Positions 246-40,863 of a stretch of 64,000 nucleotides of DNA are shown here, in pieces. A program made the translations under genes and the position numbers. This DNA is from a virus. Taxonomy: Duplodnaviria > Heunggongvirae > Uroviricota > Caudoviricetes. Every line of letters begins with the position of its first letter. Position 1 is the first letter of the stretch. Under the pieces are notes generated by a model. It worked only from the letters and a program-made list of their open reading frames with translations. It made no database searches and was not told the DNA's origin. The stretch lies in the IMG/VR virus record IMGVR_UViG_3300029305_004468; one strand, given 5' to 3'.

Positions 246-1274
246 GTGATTAGCGTTGAAAAATTAAATGAGCAATTGTTAGGTGATTTCGACGCTATTG
301 TGACAATCCTTGAAGCTTTAGGGATTACAAATATTAATCCCAACTTCACCAGAAGAGAGATACGCTGCAGTAGAGAAGACGGAAGAAATCCGTCCTCGAT
401 AAGGATAAATGTCGACACATTATACTACAGGTGTTTCTCAACCGGAGAAAAAGGCTCTATTTACACGCTAGTGATGAATAGAAAAGGAATTAACTTTCCC
501 GACGCTCTCCGGTGGGTAGCAAGAACTTTGGGGCTGAGTACGACAGAGCTTCGAAATGCCCCAAAGAGATTACCTTTCAATGGATTTTTTAAGAAAATCG
601 AAAGACAAGCTATAGAACCAGAGCTTGATATGAAATCTTATGACAAAGAGATATTAAGGCCATTTAATCAGACTTATAGTCTGATGTTTAATCGAGACGG
701 TATAGGATACGACACACAAAATTATTTTGGAGTTGGATACGACTACAGTAGCGACAGAATAACAATTCCGCAATGGGATTTGAATGGCAATCTGGTGGGA
801 ATTATGGGCAGACTGAATGAGTCTGATGCGCCTAAAGAAAAGAGGTGGTTGCCTATAATACCTTGCCAGAGAAGTTATACTCTGTACGGTTATCATTTCA
901 ATTATCCATACATCCAGAAAAGGGGCTTTTGCTTTATAGGGGAAAGCGAGAAGTTCGTGATGCAGTTGGCATCAATGGGCTACAGAAACTCCTTGGCGGT
1001 GTGTGGATGTGATATTTCGAATATTCAAGCTCGACACATTAAAGCACTCATGTGTAAGACGCTTATAGTGTGCTTTGATGAGGGATTAGAAGAAGAAAGA
1101 ATAATAGAACAAGCAAAGAAGCTCAAAATCAACAATCCACTTTTTCAGAATAAGGTCGGATACATATATGACGCTAATGGCGATTATTTGCCGCTAGGAA
1201 GTAAGAATTCGCCGTCTGATTTAGGGATAGAAGTTTTTGAGAATCTTGTAAAGAAGAAGATTAAATGGGTATAA
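246..1274 (+). CDS. DNA primase, DnaG-like (zinc-binding N-terminus plus TOPRIM core)
   Basis: GTG start after the SD GGGAGGTG. Cys-rich N-terminal region (RCSREDG...YYRCFSTGEKGSIY). TOPRIM-like acidic motifs (FIGESEKFVMQLASMGY, LIVCFDEGLEEE). Sits in the replication module next to the polymerase. Confidence 0.55.
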   Translation: MISVEKLNEQLLGDFDAIVTILEALGITNINPNFTRREIRCSREDGRNPSSIRINVDTLYYRCFSTGEKGSIYTLVMNRKGINFPDALRWVARTLGLSTTELRNAPKRLPFNGFFKKIERQAIEPELDMKSYDKEILRPFNQTYSLMFNRDGIGYDTQNYFGVGYDYSSDRITIPQWDLNGNLVGIMGRLNESDAPKEKRWLPIIPCQRSYTLYGYHFNYPYIQKRGFCFIGESEKFVMQLASMGYRNSLAVCGCDISNIQARHIKALMCKTLIVCFDEGLEEERIIEQAKKLKINNPLFQNKVGYIYDANGDYLPLGSKNSPSDLGIEVFENLVKKKIKWV

Positions 1275-1286
1275 AGGGGGGTTAAT

Positions 1287-2402
1287 ATAGCAGAACGAGA
1301 AAGAGATCCAAGACTTCAAGCTCTGTTCGATGCGAAGAAAAAGGTTTACTCCTTTTCAAAATTAAGCTCGATAGGAAACTGCCCATATTCTGCATATCTG
1401 TCCTATGTCGTCAGACAGAAGAATAGGAAGCAGAGTATCTGGGGAATTCTTGGTGGCAAATTTCACGACAAATTAGAAGAAATAACTAACAAGGAAGCAA
1501 CGAGAGATGAGTTAATTCCCCTCGTAGATGAAGAATTATCATATCTTGACATGTTAGGCCTTGACTTTCCAAAAGACTTTAAAGGCGGAGACTCTATAAG
1601 AAACAATTGGGTCACTAATATGCAACATTTTAGCAATACATTTGAACCGCTAGAAGGCAAGTTCGATACAGAAGAATTGCTCATTCTCAAAATCGATGAT
1701 GATCACTACCTGCAAGGATACGCAGACTTAATCAGACATAATGAAGACGGTACATTGTCTATCTTAGACTGGAAAACGTCCAGTTTATATAGCGAAGAAG
1801 ACTTCGAACACGCCGCTCACCAGCTGTTCATATATGGATTAGCTAAAGAACAGGAAGGATTTAAAGTCAGAGATATGGCATGGATATTCCTGAAATATGT
1901 CGAAGTCGAATTTATGGGTAAGAAAAGAGCTAACTCAAAAAACGATACTTTAATCACTAAAGTAATCGAAAGAAGAAAGCTCACTTCTGAGCTCCGCAAA
2001 TACGTCGAAGCTGATTTGAGAAAACTGGGATACTCAGATGTGGAAGTGTACTTACTTTTAGGCGAAATGACGAAGAACAATTCTTTAGATGTTTTACCTG
2101 ACGAAGTAAAAAGCAACTATACAGTTAAGCCGTACATAAAAACAATTCCGTTCGACGAAGAAGGTAAGAACTTAACTATGAAATTTATTGTTGATACTAT
2201 TGCCGACTTTGAAAGAAGAGAGGATTGTGAAGCCGACTGGAAACCGCGCCCGTTCACGAAAACTAACAAAGCAGGCAAGGTAGTCGAGGATACTTTTTAC
2301 TGTAATGCCTTATGCGACTTTGGCGGTACATGCAAGTTTATTAAAGAGTATAACCTATCAAAGGTGCCGGAAAACATAAAAGACTACGAGGAGTGGTTCT
2401 AA
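1287..2402 (+). CDS. Cas4-like / RecB-family PD-(D/E)XK exonuclease with a C-terminal Cys cluster; probable non-canonical AUA start
   Basis: The frame is open from 1275 directly after the primase TAA. The translation YSFSKLSSIGNCPYSAYLSYV...GILGGKFHDKLEEI matches the Cas4 N-terminal S.S...C...H pattern. The nuclease core is GYADLI...ILDWKTS and the C-terminus has CNALCDFGGTCKF. There is no ATG, GTG or TTG before 1551. ATA at 1287 lies 5 nt after the G-run AAAGGGGGG. The body 1551-2402 is certain; the start is inferred. Confidence 0.55.
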   Translation: MAERERDPRLQALFDAKKKVYSFSKLSSIGNCPYSAYLSYVVRQKNRKQSIWGILGGKFHDKLEEITNKEATRDELIPLVDEELSYLDMLGLDFPKDFKGGDSIRNNWVTNMQHFSNTFEPLEGKFDTEELLILKIDDDHYLQGYADLIRHNEDGTLSILDWKTSSLYSEEDFEHAAHQLFIYGLAKEQEGFKVRDMAWIFLKYVEVEFMGKKRANSKNDTLITKVIERRKLTSELRKYVEADLRKLGYSDVEVYLLLGEMTKNNSLDVLPDEVKSNYTVKPYIKTIPFDEEGKNLTMKFIVDTIADFERREDCEADWKPRPFTKTNKAGKVVEDTFYCNALCDFGGTCKFIKEYNLSKVPENIKDYEEWF

Positions 2403-8421: not shown

Positions 8422-8766
8422 TTGAGAAAATTTCCACAAAACATGTCTTTTATGGAACGCATCGATTTTTTACAGCGATGGATACTGGTAAATAGCTATA
8501 TTTACTATGAAGTAGGTGATTCAGTAGTTACAGATAAGCAGTATGACAGAACTGCGTATGGTCTCGTAGACATGCAGAAAGCTTATGAGGGCGACATAAA
8601 GACCGACACGCAATACGGCTATGCGTTTTATGATTTCGACGGAACGACAGGGTTCGATCTGTATTATCGATTAAACGAATCTGATAAAGAAAAGATAATT
8701 CGCATAGCTCATAACGTACTGCACGAATATAAAAAAGAGAGGAGAGAATTGAATGCCAAGAAATAA
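8422..8766 (+). CDS. hypothetical protein (about 105-114 aa)
   Basis: ORF with a TTG start at 8422 or ATG at 8446. Its stop overlaps the next gene. Confidence 0.35.
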   Translation: MRKFPQNMSFMERIDFLQRWILVNSYIYYEVGDSVVTDKQYDRTAYGLVDMQKAYEGDIKTDTQYGYAFYDFDGTTGFDLYYRLNESDKEKIIRIAHNVLHEYKKERRELNAKK

Positions 8767-9007
8767 ATGGGCTGCAAAAGTACTTTGTATTGTCTGTGGT
8801 CTCGTGATCTTTATGGTGGGTTATGTGCTTGGAAACATAGACGCAAAAGACAATAGACAAATATTATCTAATCCGCCTGAAGGAGCATATAAAATTGCTG
8901 TAAATGAAACAGCACAAGAAGATGACTACGGTGTCATTATTAAAACAAATAAGGAAAACATCACTCAAGATGAAGAAACAATGGAGTTACATATAAATGT
9001 TGAATAA
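8753..9007 (+). CDS. small membrane protein (84 aa)
   Basis: N-terminal TM helix AAKVLCIVCGLVIFMVGYVLG. Confidence 0.35.
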   Translation: MPRNKWAAKVLCIVCGLVIFMVGYVLGNIDAKDNRQILSNPPEGAYKIAVNETAQEDDYGVIIKTNKENITQDEETMELHINVE

Positions 9008-9578
9008 ATTTAAAAAATCTAAAAATGCAGATCCTGAAGTTAAGATTCAAGAAGACTTTGCAAACGAAAAAGATTATCTGCTGTATTTGATACAAGCTAC
9101 TGAAATACCAGGCAAAACTAAGATGGTAGCGCAGCATTTGTTGCTCGAGAAATACCCGGATGAATACAGAAAGATATTCAAAATGAATACAAGACCTGAA
9201 TATAGAATTGCATTTAGATATAAAGACATGACGGAATATAGCCCGGCTAAAAAGGACATTGAACCAGACACTGAGTATTTTAAAGCGACGGCATCTTACA
9301 GAGTGTACGGACAGAAGGGCAATCAGCTTATGTCAGAAGACAGCAAGGTGGTTAAGTGTAAATTCTACAATGGGCCTGCTCAAAACGAGGGTGAAATTAA
9401 TCCTCTTTATAAACTTACATATAAAGAATTAAACGAAGATCTGAAAAAACAAATTCTGCTCCAACATATCGAAGACATTGTCGCTGAAAGACTTAAGCAG
9501 GCAAGTAAAAATTGGACAGACTGGGAAGAAGTTATTGTTGCATTAGATACTGCTAAGGGAAAGGAGAACGACAATTAA
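8997..9578 (+). CDS. hypothetical protein (193 aa)
   Basis: Intact ORF. Its TAA stop overlaps the proposed ATT start of the next gene. Confidence 0.35.
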   Translation: MLNKFKKSKNADPEVKIQEDFANEKDYLLYLIQATEIPGKTKMVAQHLLLEKYPDEYRKIFKMNTRPEYRIAFRYKDMTEYSPAKKDIEPDTEYFKATASYRVYGQKGNQLMSEDSKVVKCKFYNGPAQNEGEINPLYKLTYKELNEDLKKQILLQHIEDIVAERLKQASKNWTDWEEVIVALDTAKGKENDN

Positions 9579-10200
9579 TAGAAAGACTGAAATTCTCAAG
9601 ATTAAAGGGGACTGGACAGAAGTTCTTAACGACTGTAGGCATACAGTAAGTAAAGAACCACTTAATAAAATGCCTTCAGAGAGCTTCATTAAGAGAGTTC
9701 TCATTTCAGAACATAGTCCTATAAGAAGTTTGAAGTTTAAGTGGGTTTGGCACAACATTAAAAGCTGGATAAGCGTTCACTGGACAAGACATTCCTGGGA
9801 ATGTTTCGTCGGAACTCAAAGAACAGACAGAACGGGAGTGAATAGAGATGAACTTCCTCAGAATCAGCCGGTAAATTTCATAGGAGAAATGAATGTTCAG
9901 AATGCAATTGATACACAAAGAAAAAGATTGTGTTATCAGGCTTCTGATGAGACAAGAGAATACGCCGAAGACTTGAAACTTACTTTACATGAAGACGAAC
10001 AGCTGAAATATGTAGCTGACGTAATGGTTCCAAACTGCATTTATCGTTGCGGTTGCTGTGAACACATGGGAGAGCCTTGCAATTTCTTTGAAAAACTTAA
10101 TGAAAAATTAGGTGGTGCACTTCTTACTACTGACATTCAGGCAAGATATGACACGTACAACGAATGGTTCTATAATACAAAAAACAACAAAGGAGAGTAG
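9574..10200 (+). CDS. possible ThyX-like (FAD-dependent thymidylate synthase-like) protein; probable AUU start
   Basis: The stretch RVLISEHSPIRSLKFKWVWHNIKSWISVHWTRHSW loosely resembles the ThyX GH.SPFEH...F.F....W.RHR region. The gene sits in a nucleotide-metabolism cluster. The frame is open from 9547 and the first ATG (9670) would cut off this region. ATT 9574 lies 7 nt after AAGGAG. Cys-rich C-terminus. Weak call. Confidence 0.3.
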   Translation: MNRKTEILKIKGDWTEVLNDCRHTVSKEPLNKMPSESFIKRVLISEHSPIRSLKFKWVWHNIKSWISVHWTRHSWECFVGTQRTDRTGVNRDELPQNQPVNFIGEMNVQNAIDTQRKRLCYQASDETREYAEDLKLTLHEDEQLKYVADVMVPNCIYRCGCCEHMGEPCNFFEKLNEKLGGALLTTDIQARYDTYNEWFYNTKNNKGE

Positions 10201-10202
10201 CT

Positions 10203-10751
10203 ATTAGCAAACATATAATTTTACTCATTGGAAAATCTGGCACGGGAAAAACAACCGTGTCAGAAATTATGCAAGTTAAATACGGATTTAAACCAGTACA
10301 GTCTTATACAACAAGACCTCCTAGATATCAAGGTGAGACTGGACATATTTTCGCCACAGATGTTGACTATTTTTATATGAAAGATGATGCATGTGCTTTT
10401 ACGATGTTCGATGGAAAGAAGTATTGGGTGACCAACGAACAGGTAGATAAGTGTGATACATACGTTATAGACCCTGCCGGAGTTGATTACTTTATAAAAA
10501 ACTATAAAGGAAAGAAGACTCCGATCATAGTTGAATTGACAGCCCGTGGCTGGAAAAGATTTGCACGCATGACAGAACGCGGAGATTCAATTTGGGATGC
10601 AGTGCGTAGAATTATCCACGATAGAAAAAAATTTAAGGGCTTTACCGGACAAATGGTTGTCAATACAGACGATAAAAGTCCTGAAGAGGTCGCGACTACA
10701 ATATATAACATAGTCTCAATGAAGGAAATGGTTGAGGGTGGACTGAAATGA
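10203..10751 (+). CDS. guanylate kinase-like nucleoside/deoxynucleoside monophosphate kinase; probable AUU start
   Basis: P-loop LLIGKSGTGKTT and the guanylate-kinase signature SYTTRPPRYQGE lie upstream of the first GTG (10257). No ATG, GTG or TTG precedes the P-loop. ATT 10203 lies 7 nt after GGAG. Confidence 0.5.
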   Translation: MSKHIILLIGKSGTGKTTVSEIMQVKYGFKPVQSYTTRPPRYQGETGHIFATDVDYFYMKDDACAFTMFDGKKYWVTNEQVDKCDTYVIDPAGVDYFIKNYKGKKTPIIVELTARGWKRFARMTERGDSIWDAVRRIIHDRKKFKGFTGQMVVNTDDKSPEEVATTIYNIVSMKEMVEGGLK

Positions 10752-11323: not shown

Positions 11324-14300
11324 TTGAGAATAGAAGAGTGGTTAGGATTAGACAATCAATTAGGAATGGACATATGGCGCAGTAAGTATCAGTACAACAA
11401 TGAATCATTTGAAGATTGGCTGCAGAGAGTTAGTGGTGGAAATCCTGAACTCAAGGAATTGATAAGAGATAAAAAATTCCTTTTCGGCGGAAGAGCTCTC
11501 GCCAATAGAGGTACTGATAAGAAAGGGAGCATGTTTAATTGTTATTCATCAGGATATGTTCCTGACGATATAGACGGCATAATGCAGATCAACACAAACC
11601 TTGCTTTAACATATAAAGCGCAGGGCGGACAAGGTGTGTCTCTATCGAAAATTAGACCTAAAGATACTCCAATCGGGAATGAATTTAAATCAGACGGAAT
11701 TGTACCTTTTATGGAGATTTTCAATACGACAACCTCTAGTATCTCTCAAGGCGGAGCTAGAAAGGGTGCACTGATGATGTCTCTTGATATCATGCATAAA
11801 GAGGCTGAAACTTTTATCACTATCAAATCCAATGAGGATAAGATTACGAAAGCTAATCTTTCACTTGAAATTGATGATAAATTCATGCGCGCTGTAAACA
11901 CATACTATGAAACAGGCGAAATAGTAAAAATACACGAACGTAGAGAATATAACGGTCATGTCGTTGAATATGACGTAACTCCTATCAATCTGTATAAGTT
12001 AATGATGGAAACTGTTTATGATTGGGGAGAGCCTGGCTGTATTTATAGTGACAGGTTCAGAAACTATAACTTAATGCAGTATGATGAGAATTACGAAATT
12101 CAAACTTGTAATCCTTGTGGTGAACAACCATTGCCAAAAGACTTCAGCTGTGTAAGTGGAGATACTTTAATATCATTGCCTGATAGAGTCGCTAAGATTA
12201 AAGAGCTCTGCAAAGAAGGTTATAATTCTTACGTTATGAGTAATGATAATGTCTTTAGAAAATGTAGTGGAGTTGTAGAACGCGGAGTAAAACCGATATA
12301 TAGACTAACATTAAAGAATGGGCTATCTATTGACGCAACGTTAGATCATAAATTTGAAACGCTTGACGGTGTTAAAGAGCTTGGAAATATCCAGCCCAAC
12401 AAAGATAAAATAAAAGTAAACACAGGATATTATCTTTCTCGATATGACGATAACGACGAACTATATGAAATGTTTGGATGGATGCATGGTGATGGATGGA
12501 TAACTGAAAAGGCAATTGGAATTAGTTTCAACAAGAAGGATGGAGACTTTGACGTTAAAGATAGACTCTTGCCTAAATTTAAAGAATATTTTCAATGCGA
12601 AAGTGTTAAGCCCTTAAAAGATGATGATGTAAGCTATCAGTTACAGACTACTGGCAACACTAAAGTGGTGGGAAAATGTAAAAATCTAGGGTTTGTCTTT
12701 GGATTGGCAAATGAAAGAAGGCTCCCTGAAAGTTTCTACAGTTGGAGTTTAAACCAACAATATTCATTCTTAAGAGGACTTTTTGCGGCCGATGGAAATA
12801 TACAAGGAAAATGTAATGGGCAGGTATGGTTATACTCTGCAAGCGAAATGTTAATTGCAGATGTTCAGAAGTTCTTAGCGTCTGTGGGAATTCATTCATC
12901 TAGATATTGCAGCAATTTTAAATCAAACCCTGCAAGAAATCCACAATATAAACTCAGCATATCTAAGAACTCAGCAAAAATATTTTCCGAAGTGATTGGA
13001 TTTAACGGGCATAAAAAAGAAGATAGACTCAATCTTACTAATTATAAAGACGAAAATGATTATATCGTTGAATCTATTGAATACATAGGCGAAGAGATGA
13101 CATATGACATTTTAGAGGTTGACAAGACAAACATGTTCTTTGCTAATGGAATTTCTGTCCACAACTGTAATTTGGGATCTTTGAACCTTTATGAGTTTAT
13201 TGTTAATCCTTTTACAGAAGATGCAAGATTCGACTGGCACGAATTCGCTCATGCTGTACATATCGCAGTAGAAGGATTGGATGATATTATAGACGAAAAT
13301 CTACATAGACATGCACTAAAAGCGCAGGCAGAAAACTCAAAAAACTATAGAAATATAGGATTAGGAATTATGGGTTACGCGAACGCATTGTTTGCTTTAG
13401 GCATTACATACGGAGACAAAGAAGCAAAGCTCTTTACTAAAAACCTATTCAAATTTTTCTTTAGCAATGCAGTTGCCGCAAGTGCAAACATAGCTTCTCA
13501 AAAGGGAGCTTTTCCTATGTGTAATAAAGAAGCAATCCTTAAAAGCGACATATTAAAGCAAATTGATGATATTGAAATTATTAAAATGGTAGAGCAGTAC
13601 GGGCTTAGAAATTGTTCATTGTTATCAATAGCTCCAACTGGGTCAATTGCAACAATGCTGGGAATTTCTGGCGGATGTGAGCCTGAATTTGCATTGAGTT
13701 ATACAAGAAGAACTGACAATCTAAATGAAAGTTACAAAGTTTATTGTAAATCAGTTCGAGACTATGCAAGAGCAAAAGGTATAAACGTAGAAGAAATAAA
13801 AGTACTCCCAGAATATTTTATTACATCGGCAGAAATTCCTTGGAAAAATAGAATTGAAGTACAAGGCATCATGCAGGACTATGTAGATACTGCTATCAGT
13901 TCCACAGTAAATCTTCCTAAAGACATCCCAGCCGAAGATATAGAAGAGCTTTATTTATGTGCTTGGAAGCACGGGCTTAAAGGCGTAACAATCTTTAGAG
14001 ACGGATGTAAGAAGCTCGGAATTCTTATTAGCGATTCTGTACAGGAAGAAATGCAACAGTCAGATTCAATGAAAGAAGAAGTTTTACCGAGAGGTGTCGT
14101 GATAGAAGCTCACGATGATGCGGTAGGGAAGAAAAGAAAACTGATAACCGGATGTGGAAGCTTACATTGTACTGCTTTCTTTGACCCGGTAACCGGCGAT
14201 TTGAGAGAAACATATCTCAGCAAAGGCTCTGCAGGTGGCTGCAATAACTTTATGATAGGACTGTCTCGTATGATTTCACTTTCAGCAAGAGGCGGAGTTC

Positions 14301-14620
14301 ACATAGACGACATTATAGATCAGCTCAATTCTTGCGGCTCATGTCCAAGTTATGCTATTAGATCCGCAACACAGAAAGATACAAGTAAAGGTTCATGCTG
14401 TCCTACAGCTGTTGGCAATGCACTCAGAGAAATGTGGAATGAAATGCAGTATGAAATTAACGACTGCGAAGAGTTTGAAGATTTGTCTGATGTAATACTG
14501 CAAGCTGAAGATGAAGTAGATGAAACGATTGATTATGAATGCCCAAAATGCGGAGATAAACTATATTTCGAAGGCGGCTGCAATATCTGCAAATCATGCG
14601 GTTGGAGTAAGTGCGATTAG
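11324..14620 (+). CDS. ribonucleotide reductase large subunit (class II/NrdJ-like, NPCGE active site) interrupted by an intein; C-terminal zinc ribbon
   Basis: TTG start 7 nt after AAGGAG. Active-site loop TCNPCGEQPLP. C-terminal CPKCG...CNICKSCG. 1098 aa including the intein. Confidence 0.6.
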   Translation: MRIEEWLGLDNQLGMDIWRSKYQYNNESFEDWLQRVSGGNPELKELIRDKKFLFGGRALANRGTDKKGSMFNCYSSGYVPDDIDGIMQINTNLALTYKAQGGQGVSLSKIRPKDTPIGNEFKSDGIVPFMEIFNTTTSSISQGGARKGALMMSLDIMHKEAETFITIKSNEDKITKANLSLEIDDKFMRAVNTYYETGEIVKIHERREYNGHVVEYDVTPINLYKLMMETVYDWGEPGCIYSDRFRNYNLMQYDENYEIQTCNPCGEQPLPKDFSCVSGDTLISLPDRVAKIKELCKEGYNSYVMSNDNVFRKCSGVVERGVKPIYRLTLKNGLSIDATLDHKFETLDGVKELGNIQPNKDKIKVNTGYYLSRYDDNDELYEMFGWMHGDGWITEKAIGISFNKKDGDFDVKDRLLPKFKEYFQCESVKPLKDDDVSYQLQTTGNTKVVGKCKNLGFVFGLANERRLPESFYSWSLNQQYSFLRGLFAADGNIQGKCNGQVWLYSASEMLIADVQKFLASVGIHSSRYCSNFKSNPARNPQYKLSISKNSAKIFSEVIGFNGHKKEDRLNLTNYKDENDYIVESIEYIGEEMTYDILEVDKTNMFFANGISVHNCNLGSLNLYEFIVNPFTEDARFDWHEFAHAVHIAVEGLDDIIDENLHRHALKAQAENSKNYRNIGLGIMGYANALFALGITYGDKEAKLFTKNLFKFFFSNAVAASANIASQKGAFPMCNKEAILKSDILKQIDDIEIIKMVEQYGLRNCSLLSIAPTGSIATMLGISGGCEPEFALSYTRRTDNLNESYKVYCKSVRDYARAKGINVEEIKVLPEYFITSAEIPWKNRIEVQGIMQDYVDTAISSTVNLPKDIPAEDIEELYLCAWKHGLKGVTIFRDGCKKLGILISDSVQEEMQQSDSMKEEVLPRGVVIEAHDDAVGKKRKLITGCGSLHCTAFFDPVTGDLRETYLSKGSAGGCNNFMIGLSRMISLSARGGVHIDDIIDQLNSCGSCPSYAIRSATQKDTSKGSCCPTAVGNALREMWNEMQYEINDCEEFEDLSDVILQAEDEVDETIDYECPKCGDKLYFEGGCNICKSCGWSKCD
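12149..13165 (+). mobile_element. intein (339 aa) with a LAGLIDADG homing endonuclease domain inside the RNR gene
   Basis: Begins CVSGDTLI immediately after the NPCGEQPLPKDFS exon sequence. Ends VHN followed by the exteinic C(NLGS). Two LAGLIDADG-type motifs (MFGWMHGDGWI, LRGLFAADGNI). Confidence 0.6.
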
Positions 14621-38500: not shown

Positions 38501-40863
38501 TAGAATTGATACGCAGTGCCTTCGCTATCAGTCCAAACACCTTCCATTTCGCGTATAGCTGTTTCAACTTCTCCGGTGTTTGAAAGATCTATTTCTGTCC
38601 AATGTCGGGCATTATCGATCATAGAAGCGAGTAACGGTTCGCTTATATTGAGAGCATCCGCAACTTCTTTAAATTCAGAACTATCGATATCATAACTGCC
38701 GTCAGATTTAATAAGCTCTTTAAAACCACCTTTTCCATCCTCTATAAGGTTGTTTAATTCCTCTCTATTTTCAAGCAGCATAGAAAAGAACTCTGCGGTT
38801 CCTGACTTTGCATCAGTCATTACTCCAGATAAGCTTTTCATCTTGGCGTTAACTTCATCAAAGTCATAGTTCATTTCTTTGAGAGTGTCTGCACCGAGCA
38901 TTTGCTGCGCAGCCTGCCAAAATGCTTTAGTTCCGTTGCCCGCATTGTCGAAGCCGTCCATGACTTCATCATAAACTTCTCCAAATGCATTAATGCCAGT
39001 ATTGTAATCTCCGCCTTCCATTGCGGCATCAAATTCTTCTTTAGCATTGCGCGCCTCTGCCATGAGATCTTTGAGAGGATTAAAAGCCTTTTCTAAGCTT
39101 AATGCGTTTTCTTGAGCATAGTCTTTAATATTGTTAGCCTGACTACGAAGAGCTTCTGCTATTATAGGATCTACTTCTTGCCATTTGTCGGCTAAAGTAT
39201 TTAATGCGTGGACTTCAGATGTGACAGCGTCATTATATTCTTCAACTGCAGTCTTATCGCCATTCGTTTCATCAAATGCCTCTTTTGCCTGTTCTGCCTC
39301 TTCAATAACTTCTCGATAGCTAACAAGTTCTTCACTTCCTTCAAGCTTTATTTCGGAAGATACTCCCATAACTGTTTCGCCCTGATAAACCTTCTTTAAG
39401 GTGTCAGCAACAACAACTGCTTCTGCAGCCATTTCAGAAGAAGTTAAGCTTGCGTCCATTGCGATTTCTTTCAGACTTGCCTGATATCCTGAACGCAACG
39501 CTTCAGGAACACTATTTAATATAGAATCCGCGCTATCTTCTGCGACTTCGCCTAATACGGTCATTTGAGATACATATGTCGTAATATAATCAACCATAGG
39601 CTGAGCCGCTGCTTCATATTGAGCAGACGCAGTGGTTAAAGAAATTAGAGATGTTGTTAGTTCGTTAATTTTTTCAGCGTCTTCAGCGTCTGTACGATTC
39701 CAACCATTTTGCTCAATTGCTTTGGCAACAATTTCCTCTTTTTGAGCAGCAATCTCACGAAGCTGTTCTAAAGATGCTGTTTCGAAATCGACTTCTTCGC
39801 CTATAGCTTGAGTGACTATATCACTAACTTCGCCACCAGTTCTGTGTCCACTTCTGCCGTAATAGTGCCCAGTTTCTTGAGCGTCTCCAACTGCATCTCG
39901 AACTTTGCCGCCTTCTTCTTTCATGCTTTCTCTAACATCTTTAAGATTTTCCTGAATACCTTTCTGAATGTCAGAACCCATAGCCAGATAGGAAAGGGTA
40001 GCATTTTTAGCATACTCCTCCTGAAGTTTTATACCTTGTTCGATAGCGCTATTTCTGTCAACAATAGCGTTGCCTTCGATGGTGTAACCCTTAACTAAGT
40101 CAGGATTTATGGCAACTAATTCAGATACTATTTCATTATAACGAGCGTATTGATCTGCACTGAGACCAATATTTTCACCGCTAGCATTTACGCCTTTTGA
40201 GAGCGTTTCAAATTCGTCTGCTACTGAATTTATGTTTTTAATATTTCCTTCAGAAGTCTCGAGCGCGTCATTATAGTTGTTGACTGCTTCTTCCATTTTG
40301 GAAATTTTAGTCTCCGCTGTTAAAGCGTGTTTGTCGTCTAGATAGTTCCAAAGCTTTGAAATACCATTTATTACTAAGCCAACAAGGGCAGCCATACCTA
40401 AATTCATGCCCATTGCCTTCATAGAATTAGACAGACCTTTAAATGACTCTGCAGCTTTCTGATTTGAAATTATCTGTTTCCGTTGCTCTTTAGCATAGTC
40501 AGAGATTTGTTTGCGGTTCTCTCCAAGATTTTTAACCGATTTTTTTTGTGCTTCCTCTAAATTAGATTCTGCAACAATGTTTGCACTCATAGTTTCTGCT
40601 AACCGTTTAGCGTTATCTGTACATCCATTCATTGCAGCCGCGCGGCCTGCTTCGGCTTCTGCATGTGTAATCGTTCCAAGAGTTAACTCTTTATTTATAT
40701 TTGCAACTTCCTTAAGTCCCGCTACGTCACTTTTAAGGGCAGTTCTATCTTGATATGCATTTGTACGTGCTTGAGTTTTTCTTGCATTCCATGCAGATTG
40801 AACTACAGTACTTATATCTCCAGTTTTTGCATCTGTTATTTTTTCTGCTGTTTTAAATATCAA
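35512..40863 (-). CDS. very large tape-measure-like protein (TMP2, 1783 aa) with C-terminal tandem repeats of about 39 aa
   Basis: TTG start. Long coiled-coil composition with a hydrophobic segment MGMNLGMAALVGLVINGISKLW near residue 150. Repeats SLDHKLEMGTI(T/S)EAQYY.KLK.LG..YYK.RK.Y.DEWK.HLE occur three to four times (nt about 36000-36560). Confidence 0.5.
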   Translation of the reverse strand: MIFKTAEKITDAKTGDISTVVQSAWNARKTQARTNAYQDRTALKSDVAGLKEVANINKELTLGTITHAEAEAGRAAAMNGCTDNAKRLAETMSANIVAESNLEEAQKKSVKNLGENRKQISDYAKEQRKQIISNQKAAESFKGLSNSMKAMGMNLGMAALVGLVINGISKLWNYLDDKHALTAETKISKMEEAVNNYNDALETSEGNIKNINSVADEFETLSKGVNASGENIGLSADQYARYNEIVSELVAINPDLVKGYTIEGNAIVDRNSAIEQGIKLQEEYAKNATLSYLAMGSDIQKGIQENLKDVRESMKEEGGKVRDAVGDAQETGHYYGRSGHRTGGEVSDIVTQAIGEEVDFETASLEQLREIAAQKEEIVAKAIEQNGWNRTDAEDAEKINELTTSLISLTTASAQYEAAAQPMVDYITTYVSQMTVLGEVAEDSADSILNSVPEALRSGYQASLKEIAMDASLTSSEMAAEAVVVADTLKKVYQGETVMGVSSEIKLEGSEELVSYREVIEEAEQAKEAFDETNGDKTAVEEYNDAVTSEVHALNTLADKWQEVDPIIAEALRSQANNIKDYAQENALSLEKAFNPLKDLMAEARNAKEEFDAAMEGGDYNTGINAFGEVYDEVMDGFDNAGNGTKAFWQAAQQMLGADTLKEMNYDFDEVNAKMKSLSGVMTDAKSGTAEFFSMLLENREELNNLIEDGKGGFKELIKSDGSYDIDSSEFKEVADALNISEPLLASMIDNARHWTEIDLSNTGEVETAIREMEGVWTDSEGTAYQFYDTISSEAAAAGLNVDEVHKKIANLDNVKVIDLTLFFDEETIGEVTKSLISMDSALGSEDGVGGFSVNADAVIERLLYMGRTAEETAEILEELDEKGWIKEGSHTNESDDWSSYTSTKETDVDVSNPTNRVVDGIMQVVSAIDQLTIAMGGIPTDINFETNAAEIQGDIVSLQAADTYTKEDVSAVKLNVENTLSTYEQLRKNARSSGNEELAKKCTENIKLLEEYSKTLDEMLTEASSKEEAILAEAESDFKNGNISESAYKKIQDGTLETVFGNIDMDDRPIIEWSEKTKEKFKDELISWGEDPELGSVSTVIGGSIGAMFGEEEVEIAYTPIIETDGKAELLGKETVGNYLQEVADAAMADGKWDLSEILEIDAKGLKVPKLNSKGEQVGTTYVQGIIAGVGEEQEYLASEIGYLMHYAGQYGASVLAGYSPLSFQIAPQITPQVDNTGETQTSASLNSLHSQALLLNGDYRIGVGVTGYFNAMAQLEALYQKKKQLAQGGTLGIGGSIAKGTNYRPHTHFPSMAKGGKLGPNGNGGLTLTGELGTELVWIPSESRSFLVGQFGPEMVNLPAEAVVYPADETRRIIGDTIPRHRFNFGTMAYGNTTFGSAGTGKPISTSSSSSTKTKEKTKGSVKKYESGLDKLQHQLEMGYITESRYYTKLKDLYDKHKKALKKNVEEQRAALEELRSAWIDAYESKKDSLDHKLEMGTITEAQYYEKLKALGKKYYKDRKGYTDEWKQHLEDQREAWIDSYDAAKDSLDHKLEMGTISEAQYYKKLKDLGDEYYKGRKKYADEWKEHLEERKDAANDAYNAEAEDLEDSLERGTLSVESYYKKITELQKKYLSGKTMAEDRADAKSDMFDNLRDGLDELWDKAQQKIDDNDLFGKWVKGGKTSLDILQDAYDKIEELSFKYFKTEKERLEYLKEKQREIAQARKEFYEDQRDNLQTILDLTEDMVRQEAQDVLDGLEKQKDAYSEIIEKKKKSLAIANVVD

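Follow-up and report, generated by a model that had tools for sequence, protein, structure and literature searches.

Shine-Dalgarno (SD)-directed initiation by the 30S subunit on a near-cognate AUH codon (H being A, C or U), read by the initiator tRNA, is established biology. In Escherichia coli, initiation factor 3 (IF3) discriminates against AUU, AUA and AUC, such codons have ~1-2% of the activity of AUG, and AUU starts are restricted to infC and pcnB (PMC5499595). In Staphylococcus aureus, conserved AUU and AUA starts with extended SDs yield ~10-30% of AUG (PMC13009471). In two Clostridium species, AUU and AUA yield 5-20% or 40-100% of AUG, depending on the 5′ untranslated region, compared with 0.04-3% in E. 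coli (PMC9680021). In this study, we consider two adjacent genes of a tailed phage (IMG/VR record IMGVR_UViG_3300029305_004468), which are predicted to encode a protein with the ThyX fold and a guanylate-kinase-like nucleoside monophosphate (NMP) kinase and which lie in a stretch of 64,000 nucleotides (nt), hereafter the window. We consider it probable, at roughly 0.83, that both genes are separate cistrons translated from AUU codons at positions 9574 and 10203.

The closest described systems resemble this locus in part. The S. aureus starts of infC (AUA), cvfC1 (AUU), ccpN (AUA) and citZ (AUA) share with it an AUH codon behind a well-spaced SD that annotation missed (PMC13009471). However, ribosome profiling and reporters served to map those starts, whereas the starts in the window are proposed from sequence comparison; and the S. 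aureus cases are cellular regulators with extended SDs, whereas the window encodes phage nucleotide-metabolism enzymes behind SDs of ordinary strength. In E. coli infC and pcnB, as proposed here, a functional protein is translated from AUU alone and control is expected to act through IF3 (PMC5499595), but these two genes represent IF3 autoregulation or translational limitation, and the products of the window are not initiation factors and have no autoregulatory logic. E. coli also differs from the probable Clostridium-like host of this phage, because AUU and AUA are far more efficient in Clostridium (PMC9680021). The BspRI paper (PMC2978348), which concerned a TTG start, was considered as a precedent and is not relevant.

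The window represents 64 kb out of a 77-kb metagenomic phage contig (JGI 3300031555, Ga0318466_10007805); the sequence beyond the window end is referred to as L149, and the sequences compared with the window also carry L numbers. The features of the ThyX-like gene are as follows.

9574-10200, plus strand: gene of the predicted ThyX-fold protein, 208 amino acids (aa); started by gene callers at ATG 9670 (176 aa)
9559-9566, plus strand: SD motif GAAAGGAG, core AAGGAG at 9561-9566, serving the ThyX-like gene
9574-9576, plus strand: putative ATT start codon of the ThyX-like gene, 7 nt past AAGGAG, spacer AACGACA
9574-9669, plus strand: N-terminal 32 codons absent from the annotation, encoding strand 1 (residues 5-11) and helix 1 (residues 14-23)

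The ThyX-like frame opens at 9547, after TAG 9544-9546, and contains no canonical start codon before ATG 9670. The initial annotation had proposed that the N-termini of both proteins lie upstream of any canonical start, and in both genes no ATG, GTG or TTG gives the conserved full-length protein. It had also placed each ATT exactly 7 nt behind an SD, and the sequence reads AAGGAG plus 7 nt in both cases; ATT 9574 overlaps the TAA of the upstream gene (9576-9578) to form the junction ATTAA, as had been described. The duplex of this SD with the 3′ end of 16S rRNA is calculated at -13.5 kcal/mol, rank 13 among the 56 gene starts in the window. The claim that a conserved ThyX-like region precedes ATG 9670 also stands. 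Homologues found by tblastn and hidden Markov model (HMM) searches cover residues 4-208, and their alignments begin at residue 4-5. Across 40 sequences, this extension shows no variation at K11, G12, T24 and K27 and almost none at W14, D20, C21 and R22. In the AlphaFold2 (AF2) model, strand 5-11 and helix 14-23 precede Met33 with a predicted local distance difference test score (pLDDT) of 88-97. The family comprises 5824 homologues at E <= 1e-10 that are ~200 aa long, and the best 120 homologues listed, the window's own short entry aside, cover 93-99% of the ATT-started query. Codon differences between the extension and its relatives include 9-16 synonymous and 5-9 non-synonymous changes (11 and 5 compared with L057).

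The kinase gene follows immediately.

10203-10751, plus strand: gene of the predicted guanylate-kinase-like P-loop NMP kinase, 182 aa; started by gene callers at GTG 10257 (164 aa) or ATG 10269 (160 aa)
10190-10195, plus strand: SD motif AAGGAG, serving the kinase gene, duplex -9.7 kcal/mol
10203-10205, plus strand: putative ATT start codon of the kinase gene, 7 nt past AAGGAG, spacer AGTAGCT
10230-10256, plus strand: Walker A motif (P-loop) GKSGTGKTT, wholly 5′ of GTG 10257
10236-10264, plus strand: 10-bp hairpin UCUGGCACGG/CCGUGUCAGA, 33 nt after ATT 10203, burying GTG 10257

The kinase frame opens at 10176 and contains no canonical start codon before GTG 10257, and the spacer before ATT 10203 holds the stop of the ThyX-like gene (TAG 10198-10200), so that ATT begins 2 nt after TAG. 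The initial annotation had stated that the P-loop and the TTRPPR signature both begin before GTG 10257. This is correct for the P-loop and for strand 1, but TTRPPR (10308-10325) lies downstream of that codon. Residues 3-171 of the kinase match positions 3-182 of the profile phrog_1815 (E 2.4e-30). Strand 1 and the P-loop are present in 18 of 18 kinase homologues, whose N-termini lie 2-8 residues ahead of IILLIGKSG and whose starts fall 0-1 codon from ATT 10203. The kinase extension differs from its relatives by 3-11 synonymous and 2-8 non-synonymous codon changes. In every extension comparison, for both genes, synonymous changes equal or exceed non-synonymous changes, and the excess is clear in most, as in the rest of the genes. 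The hairpin at 10236-10264 lies inside the coding sequence of the P-loop (z = -4.3 for its 90-nt segment); it was ruled out as a conserved element, being absent in relatives. An exact look-up of the 164-aa kinase call returned no record.

Automated gene calls on all contigs chose the downstream canonical starts (ATG 9670, GTG 10257 or ATG 10269), from which shorter proteins would be made. We consider the use of these starts highly improbable. There is no SD before ATG 9670 or GTG 10257, and the latter is buried in the hairpin. Initiation at ATG 9670 would deprive the ThyX-like protein of strand 1, helix 1, four invariant residues and ~10 nearly invariant residues, against the near-complete coverage of the extended query by the best homologues listed, and initiation at GTG 10257 would deprive the kinase of strand 1 and the entire Walker A motif.

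Comparison with related phages, a check that the initial annotation had proposed, places starts at the same codon or within three, and several kinase relatives have ATA or ATT without an alternative. Homologues with ATG in place of ATT had been expected to count against the proposed starts. Such homologues exist, yet ATG, GTG or TTG at the same codon in relatives does not refute the start and instead fixes its position there. In MT835551, the ThyX-like gene reads ATG AAC where the window reads ATT AAT; the homologue FA67 has ATG two codons further in, and L013 has GTG three codons further in. The nearest ThyX-like relatives (L057, L058, L059/L061, L037 and L151; 63-82% identity) have an in-frame GTG 2-3 codons 5′ of a conserved ATT, ATC or ATA. 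This GTG lies within or abuts the SD (AGGAGAGTGA, AAGGAGTGA or GGGGTGA), and the ATH codon is 5-10 nt behind the SD. In the window, ACG replaces the SD-embedded GTG of the relatives, and the spacer is 3 nt shorter, which places ATT 9574 at 7 nt. Because of this replacement, ATT is the sole option for the ThyX-like gene in the window, whereas the relatives are ambiguous.

Gene callers picked the SD-embedded GTG (GGAGAGTGA, GGGGTGA or AAGGAGTGA) at L057 5001, L058 1142, L059 5001, L151 2501 and L037 273, and also at L057 5654. In all of these, an ATH codon occurs 5-10 nt past the called GTG, and GTGs of this kind, inside the SD consensus, may systematically hide starts at non-canonical codons. 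In a distant ThyX-like homologue (L053 420-470, Ga0116170_10116190), no ATG, GTG or TTG occurs ahead of the conserved DADW..KCRTTV; the sequence there is AGGAGG, followed by AAT ACG ACG ACT.

For the kinase, the codon homologous to that of ATT AGC is canonical in some relatives (TTG AGC in L030, GTG AGC in L032/L033 and TTG AAA in L036/L037). No canonical codon occurs between the upstream stop and the P-loop in L058, L059/L061, L064, L151 and L102-L106. The arrangement is GAGGTG + 5 nt + ATA in L058, AAAGGAG + 10 nt + ATA behind an intergenic hairpin in L059/L061, and AAAGGGGAG + 7 nt + ATA in L151. In L064, TTT replaces the TTG of L036, and the sequence reads GGGGGAG + 6 nt + ATT; in L102-L106, the position of the L107 ATG is taken by AGG or AAG, and the next codon is ATT. 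In clusters at 80% identity, five of the 51 kinase clusters, plus one mixed cluster, have no canonical start before the P-loop, and in each of these cases an SD is followed after 5-10 nt by ATA or ATT. Two further clusters (L057 and L101) have an SD-embedded GTG only. A search of IMG/VR with the single kinase protein returned no close relatives.

The ATTs are unlikely to be artefacts of one assembly. Other samples contributed nine contigs with 99.8-100% identity to the window, of which five (L023-L027) span ATT 9574 and seven (L023-L029) span ATT 10203, with identical sequence at both sites; at each ATT, identical sequence occurs in at least three other assemblies. Since contigs from other samples are identical there, neither ATT is an assembly error. 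A related proposal is that the ribosome shifts +1 at AAT_T (9573) and joins the upstream 193-aa protein to the ThyX-like protein. The overlap geometry is all that favors an error or such a fusion. A homologue of the 193-aa protein occurs alone in L030, L032 and L033, with no ThyX-like gene after it, and ThyX-like homologues located in other contexts have starts of their own. We therefore regard the chance of error or +1 fusion as negligible.

Several observations weigh against translation of the two cistrons from ATT. The SD-embedded GTG of L057, L058, L059, L151 and L037 may be the ThyX-like start in those phages, and the non-canonical start of this gene is unambiguous in the window only. Among the more distant kinase homologues, ATG behind an SD is the usual start, which means that the family as a whole does not require a weak one, and the SD of the window's kinase gene is of only average strength (rank 41 of 56). 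In addition, all contigs with these exact ATTs belong to one strain (99.8-100% identity), which limits what they can say about conservation of the codons over time. The last point, together with the canonical codons at or beside these positions in relatives, could be taken to mean that both genes were recently inactivated by mutation of ATG, GTG or TTG to ATT or ATA and that the open reading frames (ORFs) have so far not decayed. We consider this very unlikely. The three losses in one operon (including the nuclease gene described below) would all have produced AUH, the best near-cognate class, with an SD kept at 5-7 nt. The ORFs are intact, and the excess or parity of synonymous changes holds in every comparison with divergent relatives. 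The non-canonical state is found in at least five other kinase lineages, and the shortened spacer before ATT 9574 has brought this codon to 7 nt.

Another way to produce the kinase would not need its own start. A slippery heptamer near the end of the ThyX-like gene could allow a -1 slip that bypasses TAG 10198 and yields a ThyX-like::kinase fusion.

10179-10185, plus strand: heptamer A_AAA_AAC in the ThyX-like frame, 3 nt past the opening of the kinase frame at 10176; candidate -1 site

This heptamer is a textbook X_XXY_YYZ in the correct frame, and it lies within the sole 25 nt that allow a fusion. Its chance occurrence is ~1-4%, considering ~7 in-frame positions and a frequency per codon from 0.16% (A_AAA_AAN) to 0.63% (any heptamer). 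Natural fusions of the two proteins in L113 and L116 have a linker near the length that a slip would create. However, the A-rich window contains 123 in-frame heptamers, 31 of which are A_AAA_AAN, with no sign of function. No structure occurs 5-9 nt downstream of the heptamer (local fold z = -0.36; a strong hairpin begins 51 nt off), and no SD occurs 10-14 nt upstream. The gene pair is split by stops in all frames in L057 and by other genes in L058, L059, L036 and L151. Kinase genes without a canonical start also occur in relatives in which no ThyX-like gene precedes, and the window's kinase has a dedicated SD 7 nt ahead of its ATT. Production of the kinase by frameshifting is therefore quite unlikely in our judgement. 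Readthrough of TAG by stop recoding was ruled out, because all three stops end long ORFs in the window.

We return to translation from AUU codons and to the frequency of such starts in this phage. The 56 gene starts in the window include 53 canonical codons (ATG 41, TTG 10 and GTG 2), of which only a handful lack a recognizable SD. The other three genes have AUH starts: the ThyX-like gene, the kinase gene and a PD-(D/E)XK nuclease gene.

1273-1289, plus strand: SD AAAGGGGGG (1273-1281), 5-nt spacer and putative ATA start (1287-1289) of the PD-(D/E)XK nuclease gene (1287-2402)

The nuclease frame is open from 1275, the first ATG lies 92 codons in, and, with ATA 1287 taken as codon 1, the Pfam domain starts at residue 22. 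In L142-L147, ATG occupies the codon matching ATA 1287. The pattern of AUA/AUU initiation in this genome that the initial annotation had suggested is thus upheld. The motif AAGGAG has 40 occurrences on the coding strand of the window, ~1 per 1.6 kb, and the SD:anti-SD duplex energy averages -4.0 kcal/mol at random positions (5th percentile -9.1), compared with -13.5 and -9.7 kcal/mol at the two ATTs. The ribonucleotide reductase (RNR) gene starts with TTG 11324 behind AAGGAG + 7 nt and shares its geometry with both ATT starts. The idea that the non-canonical starts have exceptionally strong SDs is not supported, the ranks being 13, 24 and 41 of 56. No SD-sequestering structure above the shuffled background was found at ATT 9574 or 10203, and an Rfam search around both starts returned nothing significant. 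Among the canonical starts, TTG represents 10 of 56 (18%), including several large structural genes, and the starts at 40863, 40934 and 62389 have essentially no SD.

A special initiator tRNA encoded by the phage was considered and rejected. The window contains no tRNA genes. In L149, tRNA-Asn(GTT) and tRNA-Leu(TAA) occur, plus an aberrant CAU cloverleaf beside them (8683-8758), which ARAGORN reports as tRNA-Met(CAT) and which has a folding energy of -25.4 kcal/mol, z = -3.6, an encoded ACCA end and aberrant D and T loops. This cloverleaf has no match to the Rfam tRNA model even at E <= 10 and lacks initiator hallmarks; moreover, its CAU anticodon would not account for the reading of AUU.

The initial annotation had called the ThyX assignment tentative, and this caution was justified, because a ThyX fold is found but the curated sequence thresholds are not reached. 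The AF2 model of the protein has a mean pLDDT of 88.7 and a predicted template modelling score of 0.86. All 50 of the 50 matches listed in a Foldseek search of the PDB are ThyX (flavin-dependent thymidylate synthase, FDTS), with E from 4e-6, a template modelling score of ~0.5, ~200 aligned columns and 14% identity. On the basis of the model, the product is assigned the ThyX fold. The HMM searches that had been suggested as a check gave scores below the cut-off for both Pfam families: 24.6 compared with 24.8 bits for Thy1 (PF02511), where only profile positions 141-182 in the C-terminal helix region are matched, and 13.7 compared with 25.2 bits for PF00625, although the kinase has the strong match to phrog_1815. 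The TIGR02170 score of the ThyX-like protein is 17.5 compared with a cut-off of 87.9 bits, and PDB sequences gave no match in a profile search. Where ThyX has the motif RHRxxxxxxxSxR(Y), the window reads RHSWECFVGTQRT, with R72, H73, Q82 and R83 invariant (residues mapped by eye), and the third motif residue of the family is S, K or M. C120, C155, C161 and C169 (window numbering) are invariant, the last three forming an added cluster. Compared with ThyX/FDTS (PF02511, TIGR02170; PDB 1o26, 6j61), the fold matches over the whole length and the nucleotide-metabolism neighborhood agrees, but the window protein is only 14% identical, falls below the Pfam and NCBIfam cut-offs, has RH[S/K/M] in place of RHR and carries the added conserved Cys cluster. 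This family may represent a separate subfamily that carries a metal site.

The kinase contains the P-loop GKSGTGKTT and SYTTRPPRYQGE, conserved across homologues, and the signature SYTTRPPR..GE; on these motifs, we assign it as a guanylate-kinase-like P-loop NMP kinase. The P-loop, the signature, the size and the strong profile match agree with guanylate kinase and phrog_1815, but its score of 24.3 bits is far below the cut-off of the Gmk equivalog TIGR03263 (160.45 bits). A natural single-ORF fusion of a ThyX-like part (residues 1-198) and a kinase-like part (201-374) occurs at L113 1-1149 and L116 1-1149 (IMG/VR 3300045988_173471 and _168691), which provides a Rosetta-stone link between the adjacent genes of the window. 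This fusion and the synteny with genes for NT5C, RNR and dUTPase suggest that both proteins act in one deoxynucleotide pathway, for example by synthesis of dTMP or a related deoxynucleoside monophosphate (dNMP) and its subsequent phosphorylation, and that the role of the kinase may be that of a dNMP (dTMP-type) kinase.

The region 9574-10751 sits in a plus-strand early operon of replication and nucleotide-metabolism genes, which has the following order.

Operon, first part: primase-like, PD-(D/E)XK nuclease, PolIII-alpha, several small genes, Band_7 protein, 193-aa protein
8997-9578, plus strand: gene of the upstream 193-aa protein, stop TAA 9576-9578
Operon, second part: ThyX-like, kinase, NT5C 5′-nucleotidase, intein-containing class II-type RNR, dUTPase, integrase

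The intein of the RNR large subunit (11324-14620) has a LAGLIDADG homing endonuclease, and the L036 and L061 versions are intein-less, at 765-777 aa. The G+C content of the window is 37.7%, and its genes follow the standard code, in which all three stops are used. The phage is uncultured, and its source is gut or rumen. At the contig end, L149 2447-4438, 6734-7957 and 8872-10008 encode YonO-like (a weak RdRP-family match), YonJ-like and YonG-like proteins, and these predicted products indicate an SPbeta-like temperate phage with its own single-subunit RNA polymerase. No DNA-level relatives of the window were found among GenBank phages; the closest cultured relatives by protein infect Clostridium, Clostridioides, Thomasclavelia, Bacillus and Fusobacterium, and the host is probably a Clostridium-like Firmicute. 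A scan of bacterial genomes for the host matched a single contig of a metagenome-assembled genome and was uninformative.

In the mechanism that we favor, SD pairing (AAGGAG, 7-nt spacer) would position the 30S subunit, and the initiator fMet-tRNA (formylmethionyl-tRNA) would read the near-cognate AUU with a mismatch at the third position, giving proteins of 208 and 182 aa that start with Met. Given the discrimination of IF3 against these codons, the AUU and AUA starts would yield only a fraction as much protein as AUG; we infer both the attenuation and the IF3 dependence for these genes. Because the host is probably of the Clostridia type, expression is expected, but below the level of ATG. 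The outcome would be a low, possibly condition-dependent dosage of the ThyX-fold enzyme, the NMP kinase and the nuclease (ATA 1287) within one operon. The stop-start overlaps would add termination-coupled re-initiation, which probably operates at both ATTs in this phage. ATTAA (9574-9578) and TAG-CT-ATT (10198-10205) share the geometry of ATGA- or TAATG-type coupled cistrons. However, the restart codon here is ATT and not ATG, and relatives manage without coupling: the L059 kinase gene comes after the intergenic hairpin and therefore does not need it.

The public gene calls of both genes are shortened, with database entries of 176 aa for the ThyX-like protein and 160 or 164 aa for the kinase, which thereby lacks its P-loop; the shortened kinase call is also found in L058, L059 and L151. 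Because these calls are truncated, function prediction, clustering and structure prediction inherit the wrong N-termini. Initiation at AUU and AUA behind an SD is already known in Firmicute-type systems, and no new mechanism is proposed here. What is new is the presence of three such genes in one phage operon, the recurrence of ATA and ATT in a phage kinase family and the systematic truncation of the calls. About one in eight clusters of the kinase family uses ATA or ATT, which suggests that Firmicute phages repeatedly rely on weak starts to set the dosage of enzymes. The recurrent ATA and ATT starts of the kinase agree with the better acceptance of AUU and AUA by Clostridium ribosomes than by E. 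coli ribosomes.

It is possible, although we consider it unlikely, that AUH starts in this group of SPbeta-like Firmicute phages are a selected layer of start-codon control and not incidental. If so, the dNMP-kinase-like gene would have exchanged ATG, GTG or TTG for ATA or ATT independently in at least six lineages, and the output of the nuclease, the ThyX-like protein and the kinase would track IF3 availability or host physiology during infection. Infrequent -1 slips might, in addition, produce a ThyX::kinase fusion like the natural ones.

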